Below are positions 1-64,000 of a stretch of DNA of 64,000 bases, one piece after another. The stretch is from Cenarchaeum sp. Lineage in GTDB: Archaea > Thermoproteota > Nitrososphaeria > Nitrososphaerales > Nitrosopumilaceae. Position 1 is the first letter of the stretch. Each line of letters opens with the position of its first letter. The notes below the pieces were generated by a model that was not told the DNA's origin, ran no database searches, and was given only the letters and a program-made list of their open reading frames with translations. The translations under genes were made by a program, and so were the position numbers. The stretch covers positions 608,001 to 672,000 of the forward strand of contig OY843768.1 in assembly GCA_963693095.2 (NCBI GenBank), read 5' to 3'.

Positions 1-168
1 CCCAGGGACGAGCCTGACGTGGTTCGCTCGCATGCGCCAGAAGATCGGGACGCGTACATACTCAAGCTGCAGGAGATGATAACGCGCGAGATAAACCTGG
101 CCGAGCTTGCCCTGCGCGAGATGTATCCCGAGATCGCCGATTCGCTCTCGGAGAGCGACATGCCGTAG
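1..168 (+). CDS. 3' end of a gene truncated by the window edge (hypothetical)
   Basis: Frame 1 is open from base 1 to TAG at 166-168 (PRDEPDVV...SESDMP*), with host-like GC-rich codons. Confidence 0.55.
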   Translation, partial: PRDEPDVVRSHAPEDRDAYILKLQEMITREINLAELALREMYPEIADSLSESDMP

Positions 169-203
169 GGGCAGCCTGCGCGCCATGGGCGGGTTAAGGT
201 TTA

Positions 204-2021
204 ATGCAGGTTGTTGAGATACTGCGTGTGTTGGCCTTTTGCACCAACTGTGGACGGGAATTAAAGGACGAACACAAGTTTTGTCCATCATGCGGCACGG
301 CCGCGGCAGGGTCTGAACCAACTCAAACATCAGAACCAGAACACACGCAAGAACGTGCTGCGAATCCACCTGAACCGATCGCCGCCTCCGCCCCGGAGCA
401 CATGCCCGACGTGGCGTCAGAATCCCCTGATGCGCTTCGCCAAGCTGGTTCTCCATACATGATAGATCGCAAAACGCTTTTTGAGGACGGTATGTTGGTA
501 ATGACGTCTAATGACCTCATTCTTTATTCCAGTGACGAGCAAGACGAGCTCCTCCGCCTTCCTGTATCAAAAATTGACTCGTGTGGGTATAGCATGATGC
601 GCCGTAAACTCGTTGTGAAACGACGAGTGCACAAAGACGATAATCTTCAGCAGATCATCATACAGAAAGATCGTGATATTGCAGATTTAGTCTCCAAAAA
701 AGAAGCTCTGATAAAAAGCAAAAGGGAAACTCGCGTGAAACAAGAACGTAAAAAACTAGAGAATGAAATCAATGACACAAAGAAAGAGTTGGGTGGTCTT
801 CAAAAAGAAAAAGATGCACTTGAAAAAGACCCTGCAACTATCCAGCAAGCGATGGAAGAATGTGCAGATACAGAAAATGTGTCGTTTAGATTAAGTGATG
901 GATCGCGTGATGAGTATCGTATATGGGAACACGTGATCAATCGACGCATCCAGGGTGTTGAGCGTTTAAAGGTGGAGTCGCTTCCTTATGGGGCTGTTGT
1001 GCTCATTAACGGCTCACCAGTTGGAACAACGCCTATCACAGTGGACAAGCCTATTGTGGATGATGCCATACTGTCTGGCAAGTATGATGTGTCGATCTTG
1101 ATGGAAGGCCATGAGGCAGCACTTCACCGTGTGTCAGTTGGATGTGGGGGAGAGTCAACTATCCTACATGACAACATCCGGAAAATTGATGTCCCTGATG
1201 TGGATCTTGACACACAAGTGTCCAAGCTACGTGCTAACGCACCCGTACTGAGTATAGATCTTTCTCAATGTGGTGTAATGCGAGAAGTAGAGTGCAGCAA
1301 TGAAAAGCTGGTTTTAACATCTGATGCATTACTTGTTGTTTCAAAACTTGGAGACGTTCTCTATTATGAAATACCCTATAGAGCAATCGCTGATATCAGT
1401 TACGGAGGCAGGCTTTTTGGGCGACTTGGAACTAAACATATGCGCATCACTTATCGCGAATTGCCTTACCCAAATTTGAATTTGGAGTTGGTATTGGATG
1501 ATTGCGAGGGGACAATCTCTGAAGCTGAGTTAAAGCGTCGTGGTGAGAGTGTTGTTGAGCTTGCGCGTGCTCATCGAGACGATGCTGAAACTAAGACTAG
1601 ATCACGCATACGACGTCCATCTCAACATTATGTGATTACTGAACAGGATTTAAACAATGACTTTCGACGATTCAGCCCAATAGATTTTGAAACTGTTATT
1701 ATGAAGCTATTTGAAAAAATGGGATACAATGCAACGGTGGGTCCTGGAAGGAGCGACTTTGGAGCTGATGTGATCGCACGTAGTGGTGGCGAAACACTGG
1801 TGATTCAAGTAAAGCACTGGGATGGAAAAGTTGGCGGCCCTGACGTGCATAAAACTCTGGGTTGCATGCCAACATTTTCTGCCCAACGTGCTATTGTGGT
1901 CACAACATCAGATTTTACAAATCAGGCCTATGAGATACAAAACCTTGGATCTCCAGTAGAACTCTGGAATGGTGAAAAGCTCAAAGACAAAATTCGTCAG
2001 TATATGTTGGGGCAGGAATAG
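204..2021 (+). CDS. Multidomain Mrr-family (type IV-like) restriction endonuclease: Zn-ribbon, PH-like, coiled coil, PEGA, PH-like, Mrr_cat
   Basis: N-terminal FCTNCG..FCPSCG; PEGA-like VESLPYGAVVLINGSPVGTTP; C-terminal FETVIMKLFEKMGY..SDFGADVIA..VIQVK..AIVVTTSDFT..VELWNG; start may be 228 or 231; lower GC than host genes. Confidence 0.85.
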   Translation: MQVVEILRVLAFCTNCGRELKDEHKFCPSCGTAAAGSEPTQTSEPEHTQERAANPPEPIAASAPEHMPDVASESPDALRQAGSPYMIDRKTLFEDGMLVMTSNDLILYSSDEQDELLRLPVSKIDSCGYSMMRRKLVVKRRVHKDDNLQQIIIQKDRDIADLVSKKEALIKSKRETRVKQERKKLENEINDTKKELGGLQKEKDALEKDPATIQQAMEECADTENVSFRLSDGSRDEYRIWEHVINRRIQGVERLKVESLPYGAVVLINGSPVGTTPITVDKPIVDDAILSGKYDVSILMEGHEAALHRVSVGCGGESTILHDNIRKIDVPDVDLDTQVSKLRANAPVLSIDLSQCGVMREVECSNEKLVLTSDALLVVSKLGDVLYYEIPYRAIADISYGGRLFGRLGTKHMRITYRELPYPNLNLELVLDDCEGTISEAELKRRGESVVELARAHRDDAETKTRSRIRRPSQHYVITEQDLNNDFRRFSPIDFETVIMKLFEKMGYNATVGPGRSDFGADVIARSGGETLVIQVKHWDGKVGGPDVHKTLGCMPTFSAQRAIVVTTSDFTNQAYEIQNLGSPVELWNGEKLKDKIRQYMLGQE

Positions 2022-3039
2022 CTCTACTTTGCTCGACCATGGTGCCCTAATTTGTGACGGCACTTATAGTGTGCACTGAACCCATACAACAAAATCTGAT
2101 GATGCTGGGTAGATAGGCCACTCCCTGTAACACGTAATCAGCACCAGTCGAGATTACCCAGATCCTGATGGGGCAAGAATCAGATATGGTCACGATCACA
2201 TGCAGGCTATGTTCGTCGATGGAGACCGGACTGGCCTGCGCGCCTCAATAGTCGAAATCAGGATGAGGGCGGTGTGGAATGGCGGGATGATTGTGGCTGT
2301 CTACCGTATGACAGGCTCTGATGCACAATTGTTCTAGGACGTGGGACTTGTGGCAATCTCCACATGTTGCCAAAATCACGCCTAAAAGCTGTGTGGAACG
2401 CCACAATTGATGGATCGTCTTTCCGCGCCTAGGGGAGCCTGAGACACGTACTGAGAGGGGAAAAACTCGGCGATCGGCCACCATGGTGTTCACTACGTGG
2501 GCATATCTGTCGCTACGCAAGAGTCACACCTGACATACGAAGGAAGTTATGATCACACTGTGTGCATCTGACAGATCCCAGTTGATGTCCTAACCGCAAA
2601 AGAACTGCCTTGCATCTAGTGGTGATAGTTTGACTTTGCAGTGTTGTGTGCTGCGAGCTCGTGACGCACATCCTCGAACACGTGACTGCTCTGACCAGAC
2701 GAGTCTCAAAAGCACAAGAGTTGCGCAATGTCGCAAGTGTGTGCTGGTGTCGAGTCGGAGAGTGCGCTGACCGGCGTCTCGTGGACGTGGCCACATGGGA
2801 CGGGGTGATGAGCCGCAATGGGGAGACAGACGACATGGGCGGGAGCTGACATGGCCGGCACGGCAGTGCCGTGGCGCCGAGTTCGGCGTCGAGCCCCGGC
2901 TGCCGCACCGGCGCGCCATTGTGCGGGGTGAGAGGATCCGGCATGATCCTGGATCGCAGGGTCGACACGTCCGTGGACTGCCCGTTTTTGGGCGGATCCG
3001 GCCGCTTTGTATAAATTAGAGCCAATGTGGGGGTGCGCC

Positions 3040-3420
3040 ATGAGAAAGTCGATGGAGAATCTTGCCACGAGCAAGATCACCGGGGGACGCAGGAGGCCAC
3101 TGAGGATACGGCGCAAGTACGAGATAAACCGCTATCCAAACGAGGCGCCGGCCGGCCCGCAGGCGACTGTCACGCGCAGCACGCGCGGTGGCGTGCTAAA
3201 GACTGCGCTAAAGGCAGCAGACTATGCAAACCTCACCGCTCCCGGAGCAAAGACAGTTCGCACAAAGATACTAAAGGTTCTTGACAACCCAACCAACAAC
3301 GATTACCGTCGGCGTGGAATCATCACGCGCGGCGCCGTACTCGAGACGGAGGCCGGCAAGTGCAGGGTCGTCTCGCGTCCTGGACAGGACGGCGCAGTCA
3401 ACGCAGTGCCGGTGCAATGA
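3040..3420 (+). CDS. rps8e: 30S ribosomal protein S8e
   Basis: MRKS..KITGGRR..RGG..N.DY.RRGIITRGAV.ETEAG..VSRPGQDG.VNAV; TATA-like TTTGTATAAA at ~3006-3015. Confidence 0.97.
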   Translation: MRKSMENLATSKITGGRRRPLRIRRKYEINRYPNEAPAGPQATVTRSTRGGVLKTALKAADYANLTAPGAKTVRTKILKVLDNPTNNDYRRRGIITRGAVLETEAGKCRVVSRPGQDGAVNAVPVQ

Positions 3421-3725
3421 AGGACTATGATCACATAGTCGTTTGGCTGGACTATTTCAACAAGACCATAACGAGGGCAAAGGGCCGACGCCTTGGCCGA
3501 GAGAGCTGTGTCTTTGACCCGTCGCTCGCCGAGCTCGAGGGGGCCGCCAAGGCTGCGGGCCTCGAGGTCTCGGCATCCGAGTCCTCGGTGAGGTACCCGC
3601 GGCGCCAGTATGTTCGCTCGGGCTATATCACGGTGCCAAAGTCTGCCTCAAAGTCATCACTCCTTGCGACCATCTCCTCGCGCCTGGTCGAGGCGCGAGC
3701 TAGGCGCAAAAAAGATCGCTCCTAG
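3417..3725 (+). CDS. srp19: Signal recognition particle protein SRP19
   Basis: MKDYDHIVVWLDYFN..RAKGRR..P.L.EL..AA..YPR..SG; ATGA overlap with rps8e; typical archaeal synteny. Confidence 0.92.
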   Translation: MKDYDHIVVWLDYFNKTITRAKGRRLGRESCVFDPSLAELEGAAKAAGLEVSASESSVRYPRRQYVRSGYITVPKSASKSSLLATISSRLVEARARRKKDRS

Positions 3726-3787
3726 CTCTAAGATCAAGTATTTTTGACCGGACCCTTATGATATAGGGTGTATTGACCCCCTGTCAC

Positions 3788-4921
3788 TTGCAGGAGGTAG
3801 GACATGTGACACACGTCGCAAAGAGTGGAAGGGTCATCGTTGAGCTGGCAGCCTCGGTCAGGGACGGGACGGTCCTGTGCGACAGCCTCGGAACCCGCCT
3901 CGCGCGCGTGATGGAGACGATAGGTCCGGTCTCGCGTCCATTCGCCTCGGCTAGCCCAATAACCAACAACATGTCACCGCACGTCGGCAAGGAGATATTT
4001 GCGATTGACGAGGAGCGCGCCTCAACACGGTACGAGAGCCGCACGCGGACAAATGATGATGATGACAATGGTGGCGAGCCCCAGACAGAACGCTCCGAGC
4101 GCACCTCGAGCACGTCACGCGAGGAGCGCACACCTGCACGGCGCGAAGGTGGCGGATCGCGCTCGCGTGGGCAGGGCAGGTACTCTGAGCGTCGGGGACC
4201 GGCGCGACGCGACTCTTACTCAAAGTCCGGACGCAGCGACGGCCGGCGCACTCCACGGCGCGACGGCGGGCCGGCCTCGCGTGGACAGGGCAGGTACTCT
4301 GATCGCAGGGGGCCTTCACGGCGCGACTCTTACTCAAAGTCTGGAAGCAGCGACGGCGGTCAGGGCAGGTACTCTGATCGCAGGGGGCCTTCACGGCGCG
4401 ACTCTTACTCAAAGTCCGGAAGCAGCGACGGCGGCCAGGGCAGGTACTCTGATCGCAGGGGGCCTTCACGGCGCGACTCTTACTCAAAGCCAAGTCGCGA
4501 GGGCGGTCAGGGCAGGTACTCTGATCGCAAGGGGCCTGCGCGGCGCGACTCTTACTCAAAGCCAGGACGCGACGGCGGCCAGGGCAGGTACTCTGATCGC
4601 AGGGGGCCTTCACGGCGTGACGACTATTCAAAGTCGGCGCGCAGTGACGACAGGCCATCGTCTCGCGGCCAGGGCAGGTACTCTGATCGCAGGGGACCGG
4701 CGCGGCGCGACAGCTATTCGTCATCATCTCGCAGCGGACCGCGCGGTGACGGCCGTCGCGCACCGCCAAGGCGCGGTCCGGCCCGACGTGACGCAAGCTC
4801 GGGGACGCCGCGAGAGGACGGCGGCCATGGCGCGTCGCGCAACAATGTCACATTTAGGTCGCGCGGGCCGGATCGACGTGGAACCGGCCGTCGCGACAGG
4901 ACAGGGAGGCGGCGTGAATGA
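3788..4921 (+). CDS. gar1: H/ACA RNP protein Gar1 with a long C-terminal R/G/S/D-rich repeat extension
   Basis: N-terminal ~80 aa LQEVGHVTHVAKSGRVIV..ARVMETIGPVSRPFA is a Gar1/Naf1 core; lies between srp19 and tfb; TTG start inferred. Confidence 0.85.
   Translation: MQEVGHVTHVAKSGRVIVELAASVRDGTVLCDSLGTRLARVMETIGPVSRPFASASPITNNMSPHVGKEIFAIDEERASTRYESRTRTNDDDDNGGEPQTERSERTSSTSREERTPARREGGGSRSRGQGRYSERRGPARRDSYSKSGRSDGRRTPRRDGGPASRGQGRYSDRRGPSRRDSYSKSGSSDGGQGRYSDRRGPSRRDSYSKSGSSDGGQGRYSDRRGPSRRDSYSKPSREGGQGRYSDRKGPARRDSYSKPGRDGGQGRYSDRRGPSRRDDYSKSARSDDRPSSRGQGRYSDRRGPARRDSYSSSSRSGPRGDGRRAPPRRGPARRDASSGTPREDGGHGASRNNVTFRSRGPDRRGTGRRDRTGRRRE
4169..4720 (+). repeat. Seven in-frame tandem repeats (mostly ~72-75 nt) encoding GQGRYS(D/E)R(R/K)GP(S/A)RRD(S/D)YS
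   Basis: CAGGGCAGGTACTCTGA occurs 7 times; units 2 and 3 are near-identical 75-mers. Confidence 0.95.
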
Positions 4922-5862
4922 GCAAACTCGAGGTTCCCGCGTGTGCCGAGTGCAGCAGCACGTCACTCATTGACGACCTCGAGCGCGGCGAGACGGTCTG
5001 CCAGTCATGCGGAATCGTTGCGGCCGACCAGATGGTCGACCATGGCCCGGAGACCGCACGCACGGGCTATGAGGACAAGATGAACCTTGCGCGCGCGTCA
5101 GGAACGATGACATACTCGCAGCATGACCTTGGCCTCTCCACGACCATAGCGACCACGTCGAGGGACTTTAGCGGCAAGTCGATATGCTCTGACACGGCCT
5201 CGACGATGCGGCGCCTCGACAAGTGGCAGTCGCGCGTGCGCGTGACGAGCAACGACGAGAGGCGCCTAGTCGGCATGCTCTCAAAGCTCGGAGACGTGTG
5301 CCGCAGCCTGGACCTGCCTGACAACGTCCTAGAGACGGCCTCCATGATATACCGTGACCTTGACGGCAAGGCAGTCAAGGGGCGCCACATCGACAGCATG
5401 GCCGTCGCGACAGTCTACATGGCATGCCAGCGCTGCGAGATCGTCAGGTCACTTGAGGACATCTGCCGCAGCTTTTGCGACCCGCGCGAGATCCGCTCAA
5501 AGACAAAGCTCGCAGCAAAGTACTATCGTGACATGCGCCTGAGCATGGAGACGGCACCGACAATATCAGTCACGATGGACCGGAGAATATCGCAGATAGC
5601 CAACATCACGAGGACAGACCCGCGCGTTGAGCGCCTCGCGCTCAGGCTGGCCGACAAGACGCGCAACGGCGGCTTTGCCGGAGGCAAGACGCCGCAGGGA
5701 ATAGCGGCCGCGTACCTCTATGTCGCCTCGATCCTAAGGGGCCAGAGCGTGCTGCAGCGCGACATCTCGTCTGTGGCGCAGGTCACCGAGGTGACGATTC
5801 GCAGCCGCTGCAAGGATCTCTTGGCAAGCTATCGCCTCGTCGTGACGCTCTCGCCTGCATGA
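4918..5862 (+). CDS. tfb: Transcription initiation factor IIB (TFB)
   Basis: Zn-ribbon CAEC..D.ERGETVCQSCG, DHGPE, HDLGLSTTI, two cyclin folds ending VAQVTEVTIRSR. Confidence 0.95.
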   Translation: MSKLEVPACAECSSTSLIDDLERGETVCQSCGIVAADQMVDHGPETARTGYEDKMNLARASGTMTYSQHDLGLSTTIATTSRDFSGKSICSDTASTMRRLDKWQSRVRVTSNDERRLVGMLSKLGDVCRSLDLPDNVLETASMIYRDLDGKAVKGRHIDSMAVATVYMACQRCEIVRSLEDICRSFCDPREIRSKTKLAAKYYRDMRLSMETAPTISVTMDRRISQIANITRTDPRVERLALRLADKTRNGGFAGGKTPQGIAAAYLYVASILRGQSVLQRDISSVAQVTEVTIRSRCKDLLASYRLVVTLSPA

Positions 5863-5924
5863 CGCCTTAGGGCAAGCTAAGATACGCCAATGCTATATAA
5901 CTCGGGACTGGTGCCCCATGCCAG

Positions 5925-6695
5925 TTGGCACGCCTAGAGATACGGGACCTGCACGTAAAGCGCGAGGGCAAGGAGATCCTAAAGGGGGTAAACCTCACGA
6001 CTGGTCCCGGCGAGGTCCATGCGATAATGGGGCCCAACGGCTCTGGCAAGTCCACGCTGGCATACACGCTGCTTGCGCACCCAAAGTACGAGGTCGTCTC
6101 TGGTGACATACTCCTTGACGGCGAGAGCATCATGGGCATGTCTGCTGATGAGCGCTCAAGGAAGGGGCTCTTTTTGGGGTTCCAGTACCCCGTCGAGGTC
6201 TCCGGCGTCGGCTATTCGCACTTTTTGCGCACGTCATACAACTCGCTCAGCAAGGCCATACAGGGCGATGAGCGCGAGGTCTTTATCACGGTTCGAGAGT
6301 TCCAAAAGTACCTAAAGGAGAACCTGGCGCGCGTTGGGCTAAAGGACGAGTTTTTGAGCCGCTACCTCAACGAGGGCTTTTCGGGAGGCGAGAAAAAGCG
6401 CTCCGAGGTCCTGCAGATGGCGGTCCTAAAGCCAAAGGTGTCGATACTCGACGAGCCAGACTCGGGACTAGACATTGACGCAGTTCAGTCCGTGGCCAAG
6501 GCGATAAGCGAGGTGTCAGGCAAGGACTCGACAGTCATCGTGATAACGCACTATGCGCGAATACTAAAGTTCCTCAACAAGCTAGATCATGTCCACGTCT
6601 TTGCCGAGGGTCGCGTGATCAAGAGCGGTGACGCGTCCCTGGCTGACGAGCTAGAGTCAAAGGGGTACGAGTGGGCAATAACGTCGGCGACATAG
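5925..6695 (+). CDS. sufC: Fe-S cluster assembly ATPase SufC
   Basis: GPNGSGKSTL, FLGFQYPVE, RYLNEGFSGGEKKR, LDEPDSGLDIDA, ITHY. Confidence 0.96.
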   Translation: MARLEIRDLHVKREGKEILKGVNLTTGPGEVHAIMGPNGSGKSTLAYTLLAHPKYEVVSGDILLDGESIMGMSADERSRKGLFLGFQYPVEVSGVGYSHFLRTSYNSLSKAIQGDEREVFITVREFQKYLKENLARVGLKDEFLSRYLNEGFSGGEKKRSEVLQMAVLKPKVSILDEPDSGLDIDAVQSVAKAISEVSGKDSTVIVITHYARILKFLNKLDHVHVFAEGRVIKSGDASLADELESKGYEWAITSAT

Positions 6696-7412
6696 GTGAT
6701 CCTACGATGCGCCAAAATGCATCCAATGGGAGTGTTGAGTTCCGTCATGCCTGACATGCGCACAATCCTGGAAAAGTCCATGGATGGGCTGACCTGGAAC
6801 ATCAGCGGAATTGTGCATTCGGACAACACCATCTCTAGCCTTCCTCCGGAATCTCGTGTGGTCACAGAGCTATTACAATCTGCAGTCATTAGGCGCCTTT
6901 TATTGCTCCCAAAAACGTATCCGCAGTTATCGGTTACTGATTATTCTCAATTTGGACGAAGTTACCCTGATGCTGCAATTAATTGGAATGGTGACTTGCA
7001 TGCCATTGACGTCAAGTCAGCAAGGGTTGTCCCAACGGTTCCAAATCGTATAACTCGTATGACGTTAGGGACTTACAACGGTTATTTTTTGCACCCCAAT
7101 GAAAAAAAATTACATAATAACAAATATTGCTATAATGATTATCATCAACATTGGGTAATCGCACTTATCTATCATTGGAAACCTAGAGAAACAACACAGA
7201 ACATGGTCACAATCAACTCCGTTTGCGTTGGACAAAAATGGCAATTTGCTGGAACAGTTGCTGGTTCAGGCGACACTGCAAACATTGGTGGCATTACTTC
7301 ATTGAGGCGTTTACAAACCCTCGATAGTGTTTTTGCCAATAATGAGAAATTTGAGCAATACTGGCGAGACTACGCTAAAAAGCATCCCAGAAAACGCACA
7401 CAAATTTCTTGA
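6696..7412 (+). CDS. Type II restriction endonuclease, EcoRV-like
   Basis: PD-(D/E)xK core SYPD..AIDVKS, TLGTY, and GSGDTANIGGI resembling the EcoRV recognition loop GSGNTTNIGSI; AT-rich; true start may be 6717 or 6726. Confidence 0.8.
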   Translation: MILRCAKMHPMGVLSSVMPDMRTILEKSMDGLTWNISGIVHSDNTISSLPPESRVVTELLQSAVIRRLLLLPKTYPQLSVTDYSQFGRSYPDAAINWNGDLHAIDVKSARVVPTVPNRITRMTLGTYNGYFLHPNEKKLHNNKYCYNDYHQHWVIALIYHWKPRETTQNMVTINSVCVGQKWQFAGTVAGSGDTANIGGITSLRRLQTLDSVFANNEKFEQYWRDYAKKHPRKRTQIS

Positions 7413-7414
7413 CT

Positions 7415-8293
7415 TTAATTTTTGATTATCAGAGCCTCAATCATGGGGTGTCTCAAATCCTCTGTTGAACCTAGGTGATAGAAATGCTCGAATGTTTTAA
7501 TTTCGTAATTTTTGAACAACTGAATATCGGGGTTTTTTCTATATTTGTTCTTGTACCACAACGACAATGCAAACTTGCATGGCACACTCTCCAACATCCG
7601 TGACAACTCTGTTATTGCATTTTCATCCCACACGTCATAATAGTTTGCGCTCCTTCCTGAATATGGCGGGTCTAGATAGATAAAATCATTCTTGGTTGCG
7701 TCTAGTAGTGTTTGCTTCCAATCGTTCGTTGTGAACATCCATGATCTATGTGTTTGTAGTGTTGCACATATCCACGTGGATTGATTTGTGATCTTTGTTA
7801 TGTATGACTTGCTAAATCTGCTTGTTTTTCTGCAAAAAGGCACATTGAATTTTCCTTTTGAATTAAACCTCATGAGCCCATTAAATCCAGCTCGATTTAA
7901 AAACAAAAAATCCAACGAATTAAAGTCCTTGTTGAACCTATCGCGAATTTCATAATAGTGGGATTCCCCATCCTTGTGCAATTTGGCCCCCTCAAACTCC
8001 AAATATTCGCGTATTGATTCTGGTGTTATCTTTTTCTTTTGAAGTGCTTTGTAAAAATCAATTATGTGTATATTTGTCTCTGAGCCTAGTGCGTTTTTTG
8101 GAGATGCGTTAAACAACACCACCCCAGATCCCAAAAATGGCTCGATCCACCTGCCTTTGTCGCCCCATTTGACGCTTGTTAGTATGAAATTCACAAGTTT
8201 TGTCTTTATGCCCTGTGTCTTGATTGGGGGCACCTTTACTATTGAACTTCGCTCCTGCGTCGCCATGGTTTGCTGTTGAACTGCCCGCTTCAT
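7415..8293 (-). CDS. N6-adenine DNA methyltransferase (Dam/D12 class, M.EcoRV-like)
   Basis: VPPIKTQGIKTKLV, motif I WIEPFLGSGVV, FLNR.GFNGL.RFN.KGKFNVPF, motif IV YLDPPY. Confidence 0.93.
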   Translation of the reverse strand: MKRAVQQQTMATQERSSIVKVPPIKTQGIKTKLVNFILTSVKWGDKGRWIEPFLGSGVVLFNASPKNALGSETNIHIIDFYKALQKKKITPESIREYLEFEGAKLHKDGESHYYEIRDRFNKDFNSLDFLFLNRAGFNGLMRFNSKGKFNVPFCRKTSRFSKSYITKITNQSTWICATLQTHRSWMFTTNDWKQTLLDATKNDFIYLDPPYSGRSANYYDVWDENAITELSRMLESVPCKFALSLWYKNKYRKNPDIQLFKNYEIKTFEHFYHLGSTEDLRHPMIEALIIKN

Positions 8294-8501
8294 CGAGACT
8301 GGGTGCCGGCCTTTGGTTTAAGAATTTTACGCCAATCGGGACTGGCCGCCTGGGTGAATTTGCACGGTTTCTAGTCGTGGGCGTCTGGCCGGGACCATGC
8401 CGGATCCTGCGTGTGTGGTCTCGGGGGCGCCGCAGCGTGCCCGCGCAGGCGTGGCGGATCACCGAGCTTAAAATATCCCGTTACCCGCCGCCTCGCTGTC
8501 A

Positions 8502-9206
8502 ATGGACGATTCTGGCGAGCAGGGCGGAGCAGAGGCGGCACCAACGTGGTTTTACACGCACGCGTTCTTCAAGGTGGACCCAAAATGGCGCTGGATGGCC
8601 GACCTGGCAAAATCCGAGTCAGCAAAGGAGGTCGAGGCGACGATGGCCTCATCAGGCGTGCGCTTTAGGACATACTCGACGCTTGGACTGCGCGATGACT
8701 CTGACATACTGTTCTGGTTTGTCTCCGAGTCAGTCGAGAAGATGCAGGAGGCCATATCGCGGCTGTACCTGACGGTCTTTGGAAAGTATATCGTGCCGTC
8801 GCGCTCGTACCTGTCATGCTCGCGCCCCTCGACGTACTCGGGGGGCACTGGCAAGAGCACGACGTCGTTTGCGGACAGCTCCGAGGCGCGCCGCTATGCC
8901 ATAGTCTACCCGTTCACAAAGACGCGCGAGTGGTATCTCCTGCCGATGGCGAGCCGGCGCGAGATGATGTCCGAGCACATACGCGTGAGCCAAAAGTATC
9001 CCGGCATACTCCTCAACACGACATACTCGTTTGGCATACACGACCAGGACTTTATGCTCGCCTTTGAGACTGACAGCCTCGTGGACTTTCAGAGCCTCAT
9101 CGTGGACCTGCGCGCCACGGCCGTCTCGGCGTATGTGCAGTCTGACACGCCGATGATCGTCTGCGTAAAAAAGGACATTGTCCCGCTTATAGAGAGCCTG
9201 GGATAA
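8502..9206 (+). CDS. Chlorite dismutase / coproheme decarboxylase (ChdC/HemQ) family protein
   Basis: YSTLGLR.DSD, YPFTK..EWYLLP..R..MM.EH, TTYSFGI.DQDF..AFETD. Confidence 0.9.
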   Translation: MDDSGEQGGAEAAPTWFYTHAFFKVDPKWRWMADLAKSESAKEVEATMASSGVRFRTYSTLGLRDDSDILFWFVSESVEKMQEAISRLYLTVFGKYIVPSRSYLSCSRPSTYSGGTGKSTTSFADSSEARRYAIVYPFTKTREWYLLPMASRREMMSEHIRVSQKYPGILLNTTYSFGIHDQDFMLAFETDSLVDFQSLIVDLRATAVSAYVQSDTPMIVCVKKDIVPLIESLG

Positions 9207-9748
9207 TGCGCGCGCTAAAGGAGTGGTCATCGGTGGTTCGCGCGCTAGAGGAGGGCACGCAGAGCGTCATACTTCGCAAGGGCGGAATTCACGACGATGA
9301 GGGCGGCATCACGTTTGGCAGCGGCACATTTGCGCTATTCCCGACACACGAGCACCAGGACGCCTCGGCCATAAAGCCGGACTTTCGGCACTATCTTGGG
9401 GACGGCGTGCCGCACGGCGACTCGTTCAACACGGTTCGCTCGTACGCCACAGTCATCGCGACATCCGAGGTCTGGCCTGGCCCGGCACTCGATGCGCTCT
9501 CGCCGATGCACATATGGAGCGATGACTATGTCTCAAAGCGCGCGGCGTGGAAGCCCGAGAGGCCAATATGGGCGGCCCTATTGCGCGTTCACAAGGCCGC
9601 CGAGTCGCGAGTCCAGACCGGTCCAGAGCACGCCGGATGCAAGTCGTGGATCGACGTTGGGTGCGAGCTCGGCGGGGGCGAGCCGGCACTCGGGGACAGT
9701 GAGGCGGCGTCTGCGCGTGAGGCCTTTGAGGTGGCACTCGCGAAATGA
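9206..9748 (+). CDS. DUF1802 family protein
   Basis: ALKEW..V.AL..G.Q..ILRKGGI..F.LFPT.EHQ..GCKSWI. Confidence 0.88.
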   Translation: MRALKEWSSVVRALEEGTQSVILRKGGIHDDEGGITFGSGTFALFPTHEHQDASAIKPDFRHYLGDGVPHGDSFNTVRSYATVIATSEVWPGPALDALSPMHIWSDDYVSKRAAWKPERPIWAALLRVHKAAESRVQTGPEHAGCKSWIDVGCELGGGEPALGDSEAASAREAFEVALAK

Positions 9749-10734
9749 AGTACAGGAGGCTTGGGCGCAGCGGCATTCGCGTCTCGGAGATCGGCTTTGG
9801 CGCATGGGCCATAGCCATGGACTGGTGGGGCAAAAAGATCGAGGAGGACGAGGCGATTCGCATGATAAGGCGGGCATATGACCTCGGAATCAACCTCTTT
9901 GAGACTGCTGACATGTATGGCCGCGGCAAGAGCGAGCGCCTCCTTGGCCGCGCGCTAGATGGCGTGCGCGAGGAGGTCGTCATATCGACAAAGTACGGAT
10001 ATGACTTTGCCAACGCCGAGCAGATCGGCCACTCGGAGCTCCCGCAGTCCTTCTCTGAGGACTTTACGCGCGCTGCGCTGCGCGCAAGCCTCGAGCGCCT
10101 CAGGACAGACCACGTTGACGTGTATGGCATGCACAACCCAAAGATAGGGCATATCAGGGACGACTCGATATTCGCGACGCTCTCGTCGATAATATCAGAA
10201 GGCCGTGCGCGCGCAGGCCAGGTCGCCCTCGGGCCCGCTATTGGCTGGACGCGCGAGGGCATTGAGGCGATGGACAGGCCCGAGGTCTCGGCAGTCCAGA
10301 CAGTCTACAACATACTCGAGCAGACGCCGGGCAACGAGCTTGTGGAGCGCGCCTCAGACGCTGATGTCGGCATCCTCGTCAGGGTTCCGGACGCCTCGGG
10401 CATACTGACGGGCAAGGTGGGCGCAGACACAAAGATAGACGAAAAGGACCACCGCTCCGTCAGAAAGGGCGAGTGGATACGCGCATCGCTGGCAAAGGTC
10501 GAGGAGCTTCGCCCGATAGCCGAGTCCAACGGCCTCCGAATTGACGAGCTCGCCATAAAGTTCCTCCTCTCGCGCAGCGCAGTCTCCTCTGTCCTGCCGA
10601 CCGTGGTGAGCGAGGCGGAGATCGAGTCGTTTGCCGCAATGTCTGACGGGAAGGGCCTTGGGGCATCTGACATGGACGAGATTGCGCGCCTCTACTCGTC
10701 ATGGCCGGCGTACGACCTAAAGGCCTCCGCATAG
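9745..10734 (+). CDS. Aldo/keto reductase
   Basis: YRRLGRSGIRVSEIGFG, FETADMYG.G.SE, STK.G, SLERLRTDHVD..H. Confidence 0.93.
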   Translation: MKYRRLGRSGIRVSEIGFGAWAIAMDWWGKKIEEDEAIRMIRRAYDLGINLFETADMYGRGKSERLLGRALDGVREEVVISTKYGYDFANAEQIGHSELPQSFSEDFTRAALRASLERLRTDHVDVYGMHNPKIGHIRDDSIFATLSSIISEGRARAGQVALGPAIGWTREGIEAMDRPEVSAVQTVYNILEQTPGNELVERASDADVGILVRVPDASGILTGKVGADTKIDEKDHRSVRKGEWIRASLAKVEELRPIAESNGLRIDELAIKFLLSRSAVSSVLPTVVSEAEIESFAAMSDGKGLGASDMDEIARLYSSWPAYDLKASA

Positions 10735-60400: not shown

Positions 60401-60476
60401 GTGCCCCCTTTGCAGGCGCGCCGCGTATTAAATCTTGAAAAAACGCATAAAACTCCCCACTGCACGAGGCGCGCCA

Positions 60477-61763
60477 ATGGTGTTTGGATGGAAAAAAAAG
60501 GCCCCGCCTGCCGAGCCGCAGCGCATGGAGGCCCCGCGCGAGATAGAGATCTCTAGCATCGGCGCCGAGCTCGACCGCCTGTCCTCGGCTCGGCGCGAGC
60601 GCCTCGTCAGTGACGCAAAGTCGATCGTCGGGAGCATCGGCGGCGGCCTCGGCGAGATGCTCGGGATGGTCGAGCAGCTCGAGCGCGAGGAGCTCATAGA
60701 GGAGGAGACTGACAGGCACATCCGCGCGATCGTGAATCGCGGCAAGAAGCAGGTTATCGCGATAATAAGGAGGGAGGCAAAGGCCGGAATCCCGGACGTG
60801 CGCGAGTACCAGGACGTCATCGAGGCCAACCGCGAGGCCCATCGCATACTAAAGATCATAGGGGATGTCCTTGGACGGCAGACGCGCGTCATCCACATAT
60901 TTGCCAAAAAATACGCAACGCGACTAAAGTCCACACTGTCAACACTCAACACAAAAAAGGACGAGCTCGCGCGCGCTGTGCGTGACCACGAGTCATTCGA
61001 GTCATCTGTCAAGGACATACGTGAACGCATAGTTGCATTCGACGCGCTGCGTGAACGCGCGCGCAGCTCGTCAGGACGAGTGGCGGCCATCGTCGAGGAG
61101 CTGGGCAAACAACGCGAGGTACAGCAGGCAGCATCAGAAAAAATATCGACGATCATGTCGACGCCCGAGTTCGCCGAACGCTCTAAACATCTTGAGGCGC
61201 TTGAAAAGTTAGGTGCCGAGCGAACCGCACTTGATCGGGAGATAGGCGGATCATTTGCAAGGATAAGCCGTCCACTCTCAAAGTACGTCTATGTCACCTC
61301 GCTTGACAAGGAGAAAAAAACCGTAATGGCCAGGATGCTTGCCGAGCCGGCAGCCGCCCTGCGCGAGTCCGGCCCTGACATTGTGCTTGACATACTTGTT
61401 CACGTCAGAAAGGCAGTCTCATCGGCATCTGTCTCCGTAAAGGACATATCGAAATCCGAGGAGCAGATTGACGCAGTGTCTGAGGGTCTTGGGGAGTTTG
61501 TCTCGCGCATGGCCTCACTGGAGGAGCGCAAGGGTGAGATTGCCGAGCGCGTTCGCTCCTTTGACTCCTCGCAGCTTGACTCTGCGCGCGCAACGCTCGA
61601 GCGGGCCACGTCTGACATTGCGGCACTGGAGTCGCGCGAGCGCGAGATTCGGGCCGATGCCGTGGCCGCCGAGGCCGAGATTCCCTCGGCCCTCAGTGCC
61701 CTCGAGTCGCGCATGCGCGCCGTGACGTCAGTCGCGTATACGGTCCGGATGCCAGACGCCTAG
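60477..61763 (+). CDS. Long coiled-coil hypothetical protein
   Basis: MVFGWKKK start; heptad-rich; no NTPase motifs. Confidence 0.78.
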   Translation: MVFGWKKKAPPAEPQRMEAPREIEISSIGAELDRLSSARRERLVSDAKSIVGSIGGGLGEMLGMVEQLEREELIEEETDRHIRAIVNRGKKQVIAIIRREAKAGIPDVREYQDVIEANREAHRILKIIGDVLGRQTRVIHIFAKKYATRLKSTLSTLNTKKDELARAVRDHESFESSVKDIRERIVAFDALRERARSSSGRVAAIVEELGKQREVQQAASEKISTIMSTPEFAERSKHLEALEKLGAERTALDREIGGSFARISRPLSKYVYVTSLDKEKKTVMARMLAEPAAALRESGPDIVLDILVHVRKAVSSASVSVKDISKSEEQIDAVSEGLGEFVSRMASLEERKGEIAERVRSFDSSQLDSARATLERATSDIAALESREREIRADAVAAEAEIPSALSALESRMRAVTSVAYTVRMPDA

Positions 61764-62022
61764 CAATCGGGTTCTGCAGGCTGGTCAGATCTAGTAGTGT
61801 CACACTTTGCCGTGCGGGCGCTGCCGTGACGGCATTGGCAGGCGTCATGGCGGTAGCCGACAACACCAGATCTAAATATCTCATACCATGATCATGTTTT
61901 GTCATTATACCCCCTAACTTTTTGTGATTTTGGGCATTTTTCACACTTTTTCAAGGGGTATTTGATCACTGTTCAAAAACCAAATGATTTTTACTTTTCT
62001 TTATATACTCATTTGGCATTTC

Positions 62023-62030
62023 TTTATAAA
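62023..62030 (+). promoter_or_regulatory. TATA box for the GHKL ATPase gene
   Basis: TTTATAAA 24 nt before TTG 62055, the same spacing seen at other genes in the window. Confidence 0.65.
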
Positions 62031-62054
62031 GAGATAGTGGCCTGACTGGCACGG

Positions 62055-63908
62055 TTGACCCAGCACAAGATTGACGTAACACCGGACAAGAGCCTCATCA
62101 AGAAGCTGGGGAGTGTAGGGTACCGAACCGAGCAGGCCATAGCAGAACTGATTGACAACTCTATCGACGCCCGCCTAGACGGTGCGTTAGAGACGATCGG
62201 GATAGTCTTGGACTTTGCGAAACGAACGATTTCTGTCCGTGACGACGGCGCCGGAATGGATCTGGATGCGCTTAGGAACTCGTGGGTGCTTGGAGCACAC
62301 TCAAAGTCATCAAACTCGAGCCTTGGCATGTTTGGAATTGGCATGAAGAGCGCATGCTCGGCCCTGGGCAAGTCGTTTTCGGTCAGGACAACAACTGCGG
62401 GTTCCAAGGCTGAACTTTACGCAAAATATGATGAAGATGAGTGGCTTGGAAGTTCAGGAGGGTGGGATGACTTTGAGGTTACTGAAACCCCAACTGATGC
62501 AGACACGCACGGAACAGAAGTCGTCGTGTCAAAGATCAATGTTGCGCTTTATCGTGCACAGGCTGCACAATTTCGAAAGCGCTTTGGAATACGCTATGCC
62601 CAGCATATGTTGGATCAACAAATAAAGATCACTGTCAACAGCAAGCCATGCAAACCAATTGAGCCAAATATTGACTATAAAACTCAAGAAAACCTTAACA
62701 TTTCCCTACCTGATGGTAATCGTATCCATGGGTGGATTGCGCTTTTACGTCAATATTCAGTCAAGGGAGATTATGGGTTTAACCTGTATCAAAACAATAG
62801 ACTAATCAGCTCTCACGCCAAATTCGGAATTCGTTACCATCCGGCAGTATCTCGTGTGGTGGGAAATCTGCATTTGGATCATGTTCCAGTAAATGTTCTT
62901 AAAACAGGGTTTTTGCCGGACACAGACGAATATGCGCAATCTCTTAAGGCAATTGAGAACGATCCGACTGTCAAAAAACTCATCAATGAGTCCGAACCTC
63001 ATGAAAAATTTAGTAGTGACTATGCCTCTGTTTTCAGAAATGATGTGCCACCAACAAAAATTCCGCGTATTGGAGATGTGAACGCCTCTCGTTTGCTTCG
63101 CAATATGATCTCTGTGGATGTGCTTGACACTGCGTCTCCTCGTATGGCGCTGGAGGATTGCGACTCTGGAGTGTACCGCATTGAAGGTAGTGGCGACGAA
63201 ACAAAAGTCATTGTTAATCGACAAAGTGCCGTGTTTCGAGCCTTTAAAAATCCGCTGTTTTTGCTGGGAATGCTGCGTCTTGAAGCTCAAACTCTATCCG
63301 GTCATTCTGAAGCACAGCGTCTAATCGCAAAAAGAAACAAAACATGGGAACAGTTTGTGGATTCACACTCTATTAATCGTGATATCAAACGTATAGGATC
63401 CAATGACACATTGCCCAATAATCTTGTGATGCTACGTAGTTCAATTATGAGAGAGCTTTCAAAACGGTTCCAGTTTACGGCTCTCTCGATCTTGTCGCCA
63501 CATCTCATTAACGCATATCGTATATTGCCCTACACAGTATATGTTGCGCGAGGTTACGGCCAACTGTTAAAACATGTTATATCGCAACAGAGTGGTTATC
63601 ACGCAATTTTAAATCCTGGCCCTGGACAGGCACATCCAATACTGGAAGCACTAGATGGCGGGGCACTCATGATAATACGTGAGCGATCTGATGTGCCCAA
63701 GTCAACTGCTGCATCGTATGCCAAAGCTTGGGTTGATCTATTTGTCGAGATACGACACGAGCGTATTGGAGTTTATGAAGAAGAGCTTGAGATGCTGTGG
63801 GATCTTGAAGACCAAAGCTTGCTTACTATGAACCAAGTGCAGTCATATGCGAAACGCCGCAGTGTTGCACAAGAGGTGGCTAAATATACTGGGGATGGCA
63901 CCACGTGA
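62055..63908 (+). CDS. GHKL (HATPase_c_3/MORC-like) ATPase fused to an unassigned C-terminal region, possibly AbiEi-like
   Basis: GY...QAIAELIDNSIDA, DDG.GM, LGMFGIGMKSA, HGT.V, S5-like GFNLYQNNRLI; AT-rich; the C-terminal assignment is tentative. Confidence 0.85.
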   Translation: MTQHKIDVTPDKSLIKKLGSVGYRTEQAIAELIDNSIDARLDGALETIGIVLDFAKRTISVRDDGAGMDLDALRNSWVLGAHSKSSNSSLGMFGIGMKSACSALGKSFSVRTTTAGSKAELYAKYDEDEWLGSSGGWDDFEVTETPTDADTHGTEVVVSKINVALYRAQAAQFRKRFGIRYAQHMLDQQIKITVNSKPCKPIEPNIDYKTQENLNISLPDGNRIHGWIALLRQYSVKGDYGFNLYQNNRLISSHAKFGIRYHPAVSRVVGNLHLDHVPVNVLKTGFLPDTDEYAQSLKAIENDPTVKKLINESEPHEKFSSDYASVFRNDVPPTKIPRIGDVNASRLLRNMISVDVLDTASPRMALEDCDSGVYRIEGSGDETKVIVNRQSAVFRAFKNPLFLLGMLRLEAQTLSGHSEAQRLIAKRNKTWEQFVDSHSINRDIKRIGSNDTLPNNLVMLRSSIMRELSKRFQFTALSILSPHLINAYRILPYTVYVARGYGQLLKHVISQQSGYHAILNPGPGQAHPILEALDGGALMIIRERSDVPKSTAASYAKAWVDLFVEIRHERIGVYEEELEMLWDLEDQSLLTMNQVQSYAKRRSVAQEVAKYTGDGTT

Positions 63909-64000
63909 TTGTTGATGGTCTGACTAGACGTGATCTCAAGTCAAGAGCTAGTAAATTTGGTTTTTCTAATTCAGGCTATCTTGAAAAGTTTATGATGGAT
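63905..64000 (+). CDS. 5' end of a translationally coupled gene, possibly an AbiEii-type nucleotidyltransferase toxin (truncated by the window)
   Basis: GTGA overlap; VIVDGLTRRDLKSRASKFGFSNSGYLEKFMMD is open to the window end. Confidence 0.5.
   Translation, partial: MIVDGLTRRDLKSRASKFGFSNSGYLEKFMMD

Follow-up and report, generated by a model that had tools for sequence, protein, structure and literature searches.

The window analysed here is a 64,000-nt stretch of the genome of Cenarchaeum sp., an archaeon of the family Nitrosopumilaceae (contig OY843768.1, positions 608,001 to 672,000; G000:C1:608001-672000 in our coordinates), and it ends in a low-GC islet that holds two overlapping genes. 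The first (gene 1, 62055..63908, plus strand, TTG start, 617 aa) encodes a MORC-type GHKL ATPase fused to an AbiEi-like C-terminal domain (C-domain), and the second (gene 2, plus strand, GTG start, 362 aa) encodes a nucleotidyltransferase (NTase) of the AbiEii/DUF1814 type. The first 32 codons of gene 2, which starts with MIVDGLTRRDLKSRASKFGFSNSGYLEKFMMD, are inside the window (63905..64000); the sequence was read 20 kb further downstream, which places the end of the gene 993 nt past the window (G000:C1:671905-672993, or 1905..2993 of locus L004). The stop of gene 1 and the start of gene 2 overlap as GTGA, and a TATA-like TTTATAAA is found at 62024-62031, 24 nt 5′ of the TTG start. As computed by script, GC is 0.606 over positions 1-61800 and 0.446 over positions 61880-64000, while sliding-window values are 0.55-0.64 upstream and, past about 61750, only 0.42-0.51. 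Normal-GC sequence resumes after gene 2, such that the islet (GC 0.436, compared with 0.576 in the next 5 kb and 0.606 upstream) consists of two genes only. A preliminary description of the window had claimed an AT-rich island with its own TATA box, a 617-aa protein combining a GHKL ATPase with an S5-like fold, and a GTGA overlap with a second open reading frame (ORF) of which 32 codons are visible. All of this is borne out, and every motif that it quoted (KVIVNRQSAVF, FQFTALSIL, YTVYV, IIRE, ASYAKAWVDL and YAKRR) occurs in the translation of gene 1.

Residues 1-300 of gene 1 (62055..62954, plus strand) form the GHKL (Bergerat) ATP-binding and S5-fold domains, as judged from Pfam, invariant columns and Foldseek. 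The Pfam family HATPase_c_3 matches residues 23-121 (E 1.4e-17); Morc6_S5 matches residues 222-286 weakly (E 0.0047, 17.4 bits with a cut-off of 26.2) and rises above the cut-off in the homologue P0091 (26.6 bits) and in bacterial relatives (31-32.6 bits). Residues E31, N35, D38, D63, G67, G94, G96, G153 and T154 do not vary among the 37 aligned members, and we take them to represent the four GHKL motifs, all of which are present. The basic residue of the S5 domain, K283, is likewise invariant (37/37), and mean column identity of the gene 1 alignment is 52%. Searching a full-length AlphaFold2 (AF2) model (mean predicted local distance difference test score, pLDDT, of 79.8) with Foldseek returned the human MORC4 ATPase (7k7t_B) as the top match, with E 1.5e-15 and a template modelling score of 0.59 (target), closely followed by MORC3, MORC2, SMCHD1 and Hsp90/TRAP1 (E about 1e-15 to 1e-14 for Hsp90/TRAP1). 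The MORC-specific signature GhXhhpXXRhl, as defined by Iyer, Abhiman and Aravind in 2008 (PMC2292703), corresponds to residues 241-251 (GFNLYQNNRLI), with G241 and R249 invariant. Judging by its sequence, the ATPase is apparently complete and catalytically competent. With at least 448 full-length homologues of gene 1 and a gene pair that recurs, the fusion is beyond chance.

The C-terminal domain of gene 1 (residues ~455-614, 63417..63896, plus strand) is of the DUF6577 type and AbiEi-like, as judged from VIA-align, hhalign and Pfam matches in homologues, which agrees with the AbiEi-like C-terminus that had been proposed from the window. We compared an AF2 model of residues 372-617 (pLDDT 87.2) against 48,161 representative chains of the PDB using VIA-align. 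The top chain was AbiEi of Streptococcus agalactiae (6y8q_A; Z 9.7, root-mean-square deviation 2.9 Å over 120 residues), the sole match at Z ≥ 8, with positions 84-243 of the model aligned to residues 57-193 of AbiEi, that is, to the AbiEi C-domain. The matches that follow have Z 6.7 and below, with MenT1, MenT4, Rv2827c and TglT/MenT3 at Z 5.6-6.7; the AbiEi homologue Rv2827c (1zel_B) is at Z 5.7.

At the sequence level, the C-domain is linked to Pfam DUF6577 (PF20217, cut-off 27.8 bits), a family whose annotation says no more than ‘unknown function’ and of which we found no mention in the literature searched. Within residues 372-617, 25 of 50 family members match DUF6577 at E ≤ 0.1 (best 1.6e-9), with 30.4 bits for P0013 and 29 bits for a paralogue in the source genome (C1:510078-510488). 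The match spans profile positions ~35-200 of 204, i.e. the profile without its winged helix-turn-helix (wHTH) end. Searching 1.84 billion representatives with a profile of residues 372-617 gave 272 proteins, with E down to 1e-30. Among the 150 matches listed, 26 are proteins of 619-676 aa matched over the whole profile, none exceeds 676 aa, and most of the others are 200-340 aa long and cover only the last ~170 profile positions. All 10 of the short standalone proteins that we tested are DUF6577 proteins above the cut-off, and five of them also have an AbiEi_4 wHTH at E ≤ 0.01. Overall, the standalone proteins are 230-310 aa long and carry an N-terminal wHTH of AbiEi_4, TrmB or other type. In hhalign the C-domain aligned with 55 standalone proteins at 99.9% (E 4.3e-35, 166 columns), and with one member at 97.6%. 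For example, one standalone protein (L087, 272 aa) of genome G032, which belongs to the same phylum, combines DUF6577 (E 6.7e-33) with an AbiEi_4 wHTH (E 1.9e-6), and its gene overlaps a downstream AbiEii gene (E 3.4e-12) by 4 nt; in a second locus of the same genome (L093) a 277-aa DUF6577 protein is followed by a 345-aa AbiEii. The standalone gene thus lies directly 5′ of an AbiEii gene in both loci examined (2/2). Pfam searches detected no HTH family, either in gene 1 or in residues 372-617 of 50 members, and the N-terminal ~300 residues are GHKL and S5 domains instead, which is in keeping with the earlier suggestion that an ATPase has replaced the antitoxin's wHTH. Because the Pfam matches in homologues, the standalone gene pairs, the profile comparison and the structural match converge, we conclude from sequence and predicted structure that DUF6577 represents a putative archaeal AbiEi-type antitoxin family, of which gene 1 would retain the C-domain without the wHTH.

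Between the ATPase and the C-domain lies a middle domain (residues ~361-440, 63135..63374, plus strand) made up of β-hairpins and two helices, with the motif NRxSxxFxAFKNPLFLL...E. It is strongly conserved, with F394, P400 and E410 invariant. VIA-align matches over this domain all had Z ≤ 4.1, and none could be assigned as a known fold. One weak collinear match was found at the C-terminal end of bacterial MORC-like relatives of ~500-550 aa (L080, E 3.9e-4), and because of the position of this match there is a thin suggestion that gene 1 may have arisen from a whole bacterial-type MORC-like protein of ~500-550 aa joined to an AbiEi C-domain.

Gene 2 was predicted in the preliminary description to encode an NTase downstream, and the full reading frame supports this: Pfam PF08843 (AbiEii) matches residues 44-228 (E 1.5e-9, 38.6 bits with a cut-off of 22.5) and three PADLOC AbiEii models match as well (best E 7.4e-6). 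All 31 aligned members of the gene 2 family share E27, G49, G50, R63, S65, D67, D69, K180, K211, D215 and F286, and D179 is conserved in ≥ 90% of them. The core GG...RxSxDxD is accompanied by downstream D-K and K...D motifs, which together we take to be the NTase signature hGG...R-x-S/T-x-D-x-D, D-K and K...D. Residue S65 stands two residues past R63, like T65 after R63 in AbiEii, a likeness of motif position rather than of alignment. Separately, gene 2 contains three tandem 18-nt repeats (G000:C1:672467-672520; 3913-3966 of locus L001, whose position 1 is window position 60555) that encode VEYPKP, VGRSKP and VGYSNL. They form an in-frame insertion between D179-K180 and K211, seen only in gene 2 and an 85%-identical relative (L009).

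The pairing of the two genes, which had been proposed from a partial view of gene 2, recurs widely. Our related loci represent the best 80 of 392 matches, of which 78 loci were kept; 53 of these are full-length, and dropping two at a contig edge (L028 and L045) left 51 that could be assessed. In 33 of the 51, an intact AbiEii-like gene lies directly 3′ of the gene 1 homologue, and the ATPase ORF ahead of it is 617 aa or longer in all 33. Where the ORF caller found the AbiEii-like gene, its distance from gene 1 ranges from -61 to +24 nt and is often -4 or -1. The source genome alone contains three full-length copies of gene 1, which are 40-41% identical, and an AbiEii-like gene of 362-377 aa comes after each of them (3/3). 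Another 10 of the 51 loci contain remnants of the AbiEii-like gene, either fragments or broken copies, and in nine of these 10 the ATPase ORF is whole (≥ 619 aa), the other being interrupted near its start (L015). Loss of the toxin gene before the ATPase gene is how a toxin–antitoxin pair would be expected to decay. In two loci (L011 and L054) the AbiEii-like gene is split by an insertion of 1.3-1.5 kb. The insertion in L054 includes an ORF of about 415 aa (7513-8757) with a DDE_Tnp_1 transposase match (E 7.8e-7), and that in L011 an ORF of about 415 aa (7242-8483) with no Pfam match.

A further 25 loci share only residues 1-~300 with gene 1 and come mostly from candidate-phyla bacteria and DPANN archaea. 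Neither an AbiEi-like C-domain, also when the loci of these ~500-557-aa relatives were searched in six frames, nor an AbiEii gene was found there, and the genes 3′ of the relatives vary (a trypsin-like peptidase, a metallo-beta-lactamase fold, or no Pfam family). In some larger genomes the pairs occur in tandem or in clusters (L056 at 2-4179 and 5001-6920, L050, and G204:C2:805801-882801), and some of the ATPase genes there lack a toxin gene of their own.

The fusion-specific part of gene 1 was detected in 21 of 151 sampled Nitrosopumilaceae genomes, in eight of 27 genera, with one to six matches per genome. Full-length loci belong nearly all to Cenarchaeum, Nitrosopumilus and other Nitrosopumilaceae metagenome-assembled genomes (MAGs), and the fusion family is thus almost confined to the Nitrosopumilaceae. 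One full-length pair at 40% identity comes from a MAG labelled Dehalococcoidia (L021; AbiEii E 5.3e-135 to the family hidden Markov model), which gene transfer or faulty binning would explain. Within the genus, the fusion-specific part is present in all five genomes, G000 included, and one of the four others (G036) has the islet at this very site. In the remaining three, the 1.5 kb 5′ of the flanking 294-aa ORF contains neither gene and is GC-rich in two (G195 and G211) and low-GC in one (G176). The other two copies of the source genome are at C1:510081-511925 (minus strand, GC 0.569) and C1:891180-892994 (plus strand, GC 0.422), a difference in composition that suggests acquisition at different ages or from different sources. 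A fourth, weak match in the same genome (G000:C1:1051998-1052339, minus strand; E 2.9e-6) covers only residues 8-116 and falls in a 555-aa open frame, which is a GHKL protein of a different kind. With its patchy distribution, foreign GC and variable copy number, the pair is accessory.

Horizontal acquisition is the best explanation for the low-GC islet, as far as its composition can tell; no flanking direct or inverted repeats marking an insertion site were found in a repeat search of the locus. The islet starts with an AT-rich region upstream of gene 1 (61880..62054, plus strand), a putative promoter region. Besides the TATA-like element, it contains two 17-nt direct repeats (61989-62005 and 62012-62028; 1435-1451 and 1458-1474 of L001) that are 23 nt apart and both end in CTTTATA; these could be two TATA-like boxes or a putative binding site. 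The gene just 5′ of the islet (60435-61763, plus strand) encodes 442 aa with many charged, helical-looking repeats; in none of the four other genomes of the genus was it found beside the flanking 294-aa ORF.

Taking these results together, we consider it probable that the two genes constitute a toxin–antitoxin (TA) or abortive-infection-type module of the AbiE/MenAT kind, carried on an acquired low-GC islet, in which a MORC ATPase takes the place of the antitoxin's wHTH. Gene 2 would be the toxin, an AbiEii-type NTase that adds nucleotides to tRNA 3′ ends and halts translation, by analogy with MenT and AbiEii. Gene 1 would be the cognate antitoxin, with an AbiEi-type C-domain and with a MORC-type GHKL-S5 ATPase and middle domain in exchange for the wHTH, and the GTGA overlap would couple the two genes translationally. 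MORC modules dimerise upon binding ATP and clamp DNA, and the ATPase module may provide an ATP-dependent layer of control or sensing instead of simple promoter autoregulation. The C-domain would dock on the toxin and hold it inactive, probably by causing it to phosphorylate itself at Ser65 of the RxSxDxD core or, alternatively, by sequestering it, as could be expected because R63 and S65 are invariant and because of the reported mechanism of AbiEi and MenA. In S. agalactiae, AbiEi and AbiEii form a heterodimer through an acidic loop of AbiEi (D85/E86/I87) that enters the active site of the toxin, and AbiEi binding leads to auto-phosphorylation of AbiEii and abolishes its NTase activity; the phosphoacceptor, T65, is next to R63 and S64 (bioRxiv 10.64898/2026.01.19.700257). 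Antitoxin-induced auto-phosphorylation of an active-site Ser/Thr has also been described for MenT1 and MenT3 (Nature Communications 2024, PMC11375011); the corresponding phosphoacceptors are T65 of AbiEii, S78 of MenT3 and T39 of MenT1. A predicted complex of gene 2 with residues 450-617 of gene 1 had a best score of 0.14, compared with a mark of 0.32, in a prediction without control runs. The domain homologies, the recurrent gene pair, the intact catalytic motifs and the patchy, accessory distribution are what we observe; the toxicity of gene 2, its neutralisation by gene 1, the phosphorylation, the signal sensed by the ATPase and an antiviral role are what we infer. The preliminary description had called the pair a type IV TA or abortive-infection module; an AbiE-kind pair is supported by our results, while the label ‘type IV’ is dated, since a 2026 preprint moves AbiE to type VII, the type defined by antitoxin-induced auto-phosphorylation of the toxin (bioRxiv 10.64898/2026.01.19.700257).

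Several observations weigh against this interpretation. The link from the C-domain to AbiEi proper is structural, comes from a predicted model and has 13% identity. When the model of residues 372-617 was searched against the PDB with Foldseek, nothing reached E ≤ 0.001; 6y8q_A ranked 29th (E 0.84) and MenAT1 (8an5_B) 41st. The Pfam AbiEi models match neither gene 1 (E ≤ 1) nor any of 50 members (E ≤ 0.1), the PADLOC AbiEi models do not match gene 1, and gene 1 itself has no Pfam DUF6577 match at E ≤ 0.1. In sequence-profile searches of the PDB, the family profile A2 had no matches, and the standalone family A4 matched wHTH proteins only, with AbiEi not among them. The related loci are the best-scoring ones and not a random sample, and in eight of the 51 assessable loci the AbiEii gene is wholly absent, because of which we recognise that the ATPase protein can persist alone. 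One locus is a possible exception to the toxin-first order of decay: in the upstream pair of L056 about 1.4 kb interrupts the C-domain, yet the AbiEii frame is still open, and a second ATPase-C-domain gene adjoins this pair. Finally, the S. agalactiae AbiE pair gave E. coli no protection from the phages tested (bioRxiv 10.64898/2026.01.19.700257), for which reason likeness to AbiE is no guarantee of a role in defence. In one of the AbiEii-less loci (L033), a 781-aa protein with AAA_13/SMC_N matches (7500-9842) lies 3′ of the ATPase-AbiEi-domain gene and may be an alternative partner.

A more specific version of the module, in which the MORC ATPase would sense infection and thereby operate an archaeal abortive-infection switch, is possible, and we offer it tentatively; the preliminary description had already raised a clamp that gates the toxin. 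In such a switch the ATP-bound state would hold the C-domain on the toxin with Ser65 phosphorylated. A change of dimer state, brought about by clamping onto foreign DNA, by a viral inhibitor or by falling ATP, would free the NTase or end its re-silencing and lead to a translation block. If true, the pair would represent the first type VII TA system gated directly by an ATP-driven clamp, and a defence system restricted for the most part to ammonia-oxidising archaea.

Alternatively, the pair could be a selfish addiction module without an antiviral role, a TA cassette that stabilises itself or its islet and in which the ATPase is a regulatory elaboration acting on antitoxin turnover or expression. 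The molecular mechanism would be the same as in the module that we favour, and the two differ in biological role only. Several divergent copies per genome (three here and up to six elsewhere), the tandem arrays, the frequent loss of or insertion into toxin genes (10 of 51 loci, with a DDE transposase in L054) and the lack of protection of E. coli by the S. agalactiae pair from the phages tested (bioRxiv 10.64898/2026.01.19.700257) would all fit such a cassette. However, AbiE came to light as an abortive-infection system, the RlegTA and SanaTA pairs affect phage T7 (bioRxiv 10.64898/2026.01.19.700257), and elsewhere MORC and paraMORC ATPases belong to restriction and defence settings (PMC2292703). 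We regard a purely selfish role as unlikely.

It is quite improbable, in our estimate, that the MORC ATPase is the principal actor, working on DNA, with the AbiEii-like NTase as an effector that it activates and the C-domain as an activating adaptor. The description of prokaryotic MORCs as restriction-modification components (PMC2292703), the strong conservation of a whole ATPase with its motifs intact and the retention of the ATPase gene in eight of 51 loci without any AbiEii gene are what one would expect of such an actor, but the islet has no helicase, endonuclease or methylase gene among its two genes, and the standalone relatives of the C-domain share both the architecture and the gene position of AbiEi antitoxins. 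The loss of the toxin first, with the ATPase gene kept in nine of 10 loci, also fits an antitoxin better than an activator. Least credible of all is a housekeeping pair that modifies RNA or protein outside of conflict, e.g. a regulated tRNA NTase with an Hsp90/MORC-like chaperone-ATPase, since its attractions, that Hsp90/TRAP1 chains equal MORC in Foldseek scores and that DUF1814 enzymes act on tRNA 3′ ends (PMC10435456), are countered by a patchy occurrence (21 of 151 genomes of the host family), foreign composition, variable location and copy number, and frequent pseudogenes.

AbiE and MenAT pairs are among the most widespread TA modules. A variant of the AbiE/MenAT-kind module that keeps the neutralising domain but trades the DNA-binding head for an ATPase would bring energy-dependent control of the toxin, and it offers a handle on which part of these antitoxins does what. 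The results would give the Pfam family DUF6577 a role, that of an archaeal AbiEi-type antitoxin, and would extend prokaryotic MORC ATPases from restriction systems to TA control. In addition, they would add a lineage-restricted, multi-copy accessory module to the sparse knowledge of conflict systems in the Nitrosopumilaceae, which are abundant marine ammonia oxidisers.

We found no named system and no paper describing a fusion of a MORC ATPase to an AbiEi-type C-domain, as the preliminary description had anticipated. MzaB of the MZA anti-phage system is the sole PADLOC 2.0.0 match and the best NCBIfam match of gene 1, in both cases through the N-terminal GHKL part; the NCBIfam match covers residues 15-157 at 45.1 bits, compared with a cut-off of 850, and gene 1 thus belongs to the same superfamily as MzaB but not to its family. 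Nor did we find a paper linking a GHKL/MORC ATPase to AbiEii/DUF1814, in a search that left the supplementary neighbourhood tables of Iyer 2008 and Makarova 2013 outside its scope. The words ‘nucleotidyltransferase’, ‘DUF1814’ and ‘toxin’ are absent from Iyer 2008 (PMC2292703), its supplementary lists aside, and Makarova 2013 mentions MORC and DUF1814 separately. With the prokaryotic restriction-modification MORCs of Iyer 2008, gene 1 shares the four GHKL motifs, the basic residue of the S5 domain and GhXhhpXXRhl, but their genomic context consists of helicases, endonucleases and methylases, whereas that of gene 1 is an AbiEii toxin.

The TA systems offer closer comparisons. The MenAT systems of Mycobacterium tuberculosis have an NTase of the same superfamily as gene 2, and MenT1, MenT4, TglT/MenT3 and Rv2827c are structural neighbours of the C-domain. 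The same neutralisation logic, auto-phosphorylation of an active-site Ser/Thr (PMC11375011), would be expected, while the sequence relationship is remote and, in the texts consulted, the described MenA antitoxins have no ATPase. AbiE of S. agalactiae and Lactococcus (COG5340-DUF1814) is likewise bicistronic, with the antitoxin gene first and overlapping the gene of a DUF1814/AbiEii NTase. It shares the fold of the antitoxin C-domain (Z 9.7 between 6y8q_A and our predicted model) and the GG...R-x-S/T-x-D-x-D core of the toxin, with a hydroxyl residue at position 65 in both cases. The wHTH, a hallmark of COG5340 antitoxins (bioRxiv 10.64898/2026.01.19.700257), is missing from gene 1, which has about 450 aa of MORC ATPase and middle domain instead; the archaeal toxin is also longer (362-380 aa) and distant (Pfam E 1.5e-9), and gene 1 lies outside the AbiEi models of Pfam and PADLOC. 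The standalone archaeal wHTH-DUF6577 genes with their AbiEii partners (L087 and L093) have a homologous C-domain, the same type of AbiEii downstream and, in L087, the same 4-nt overlap, and they carry an N-terminal wHTH where gene 1 has its ATPase.

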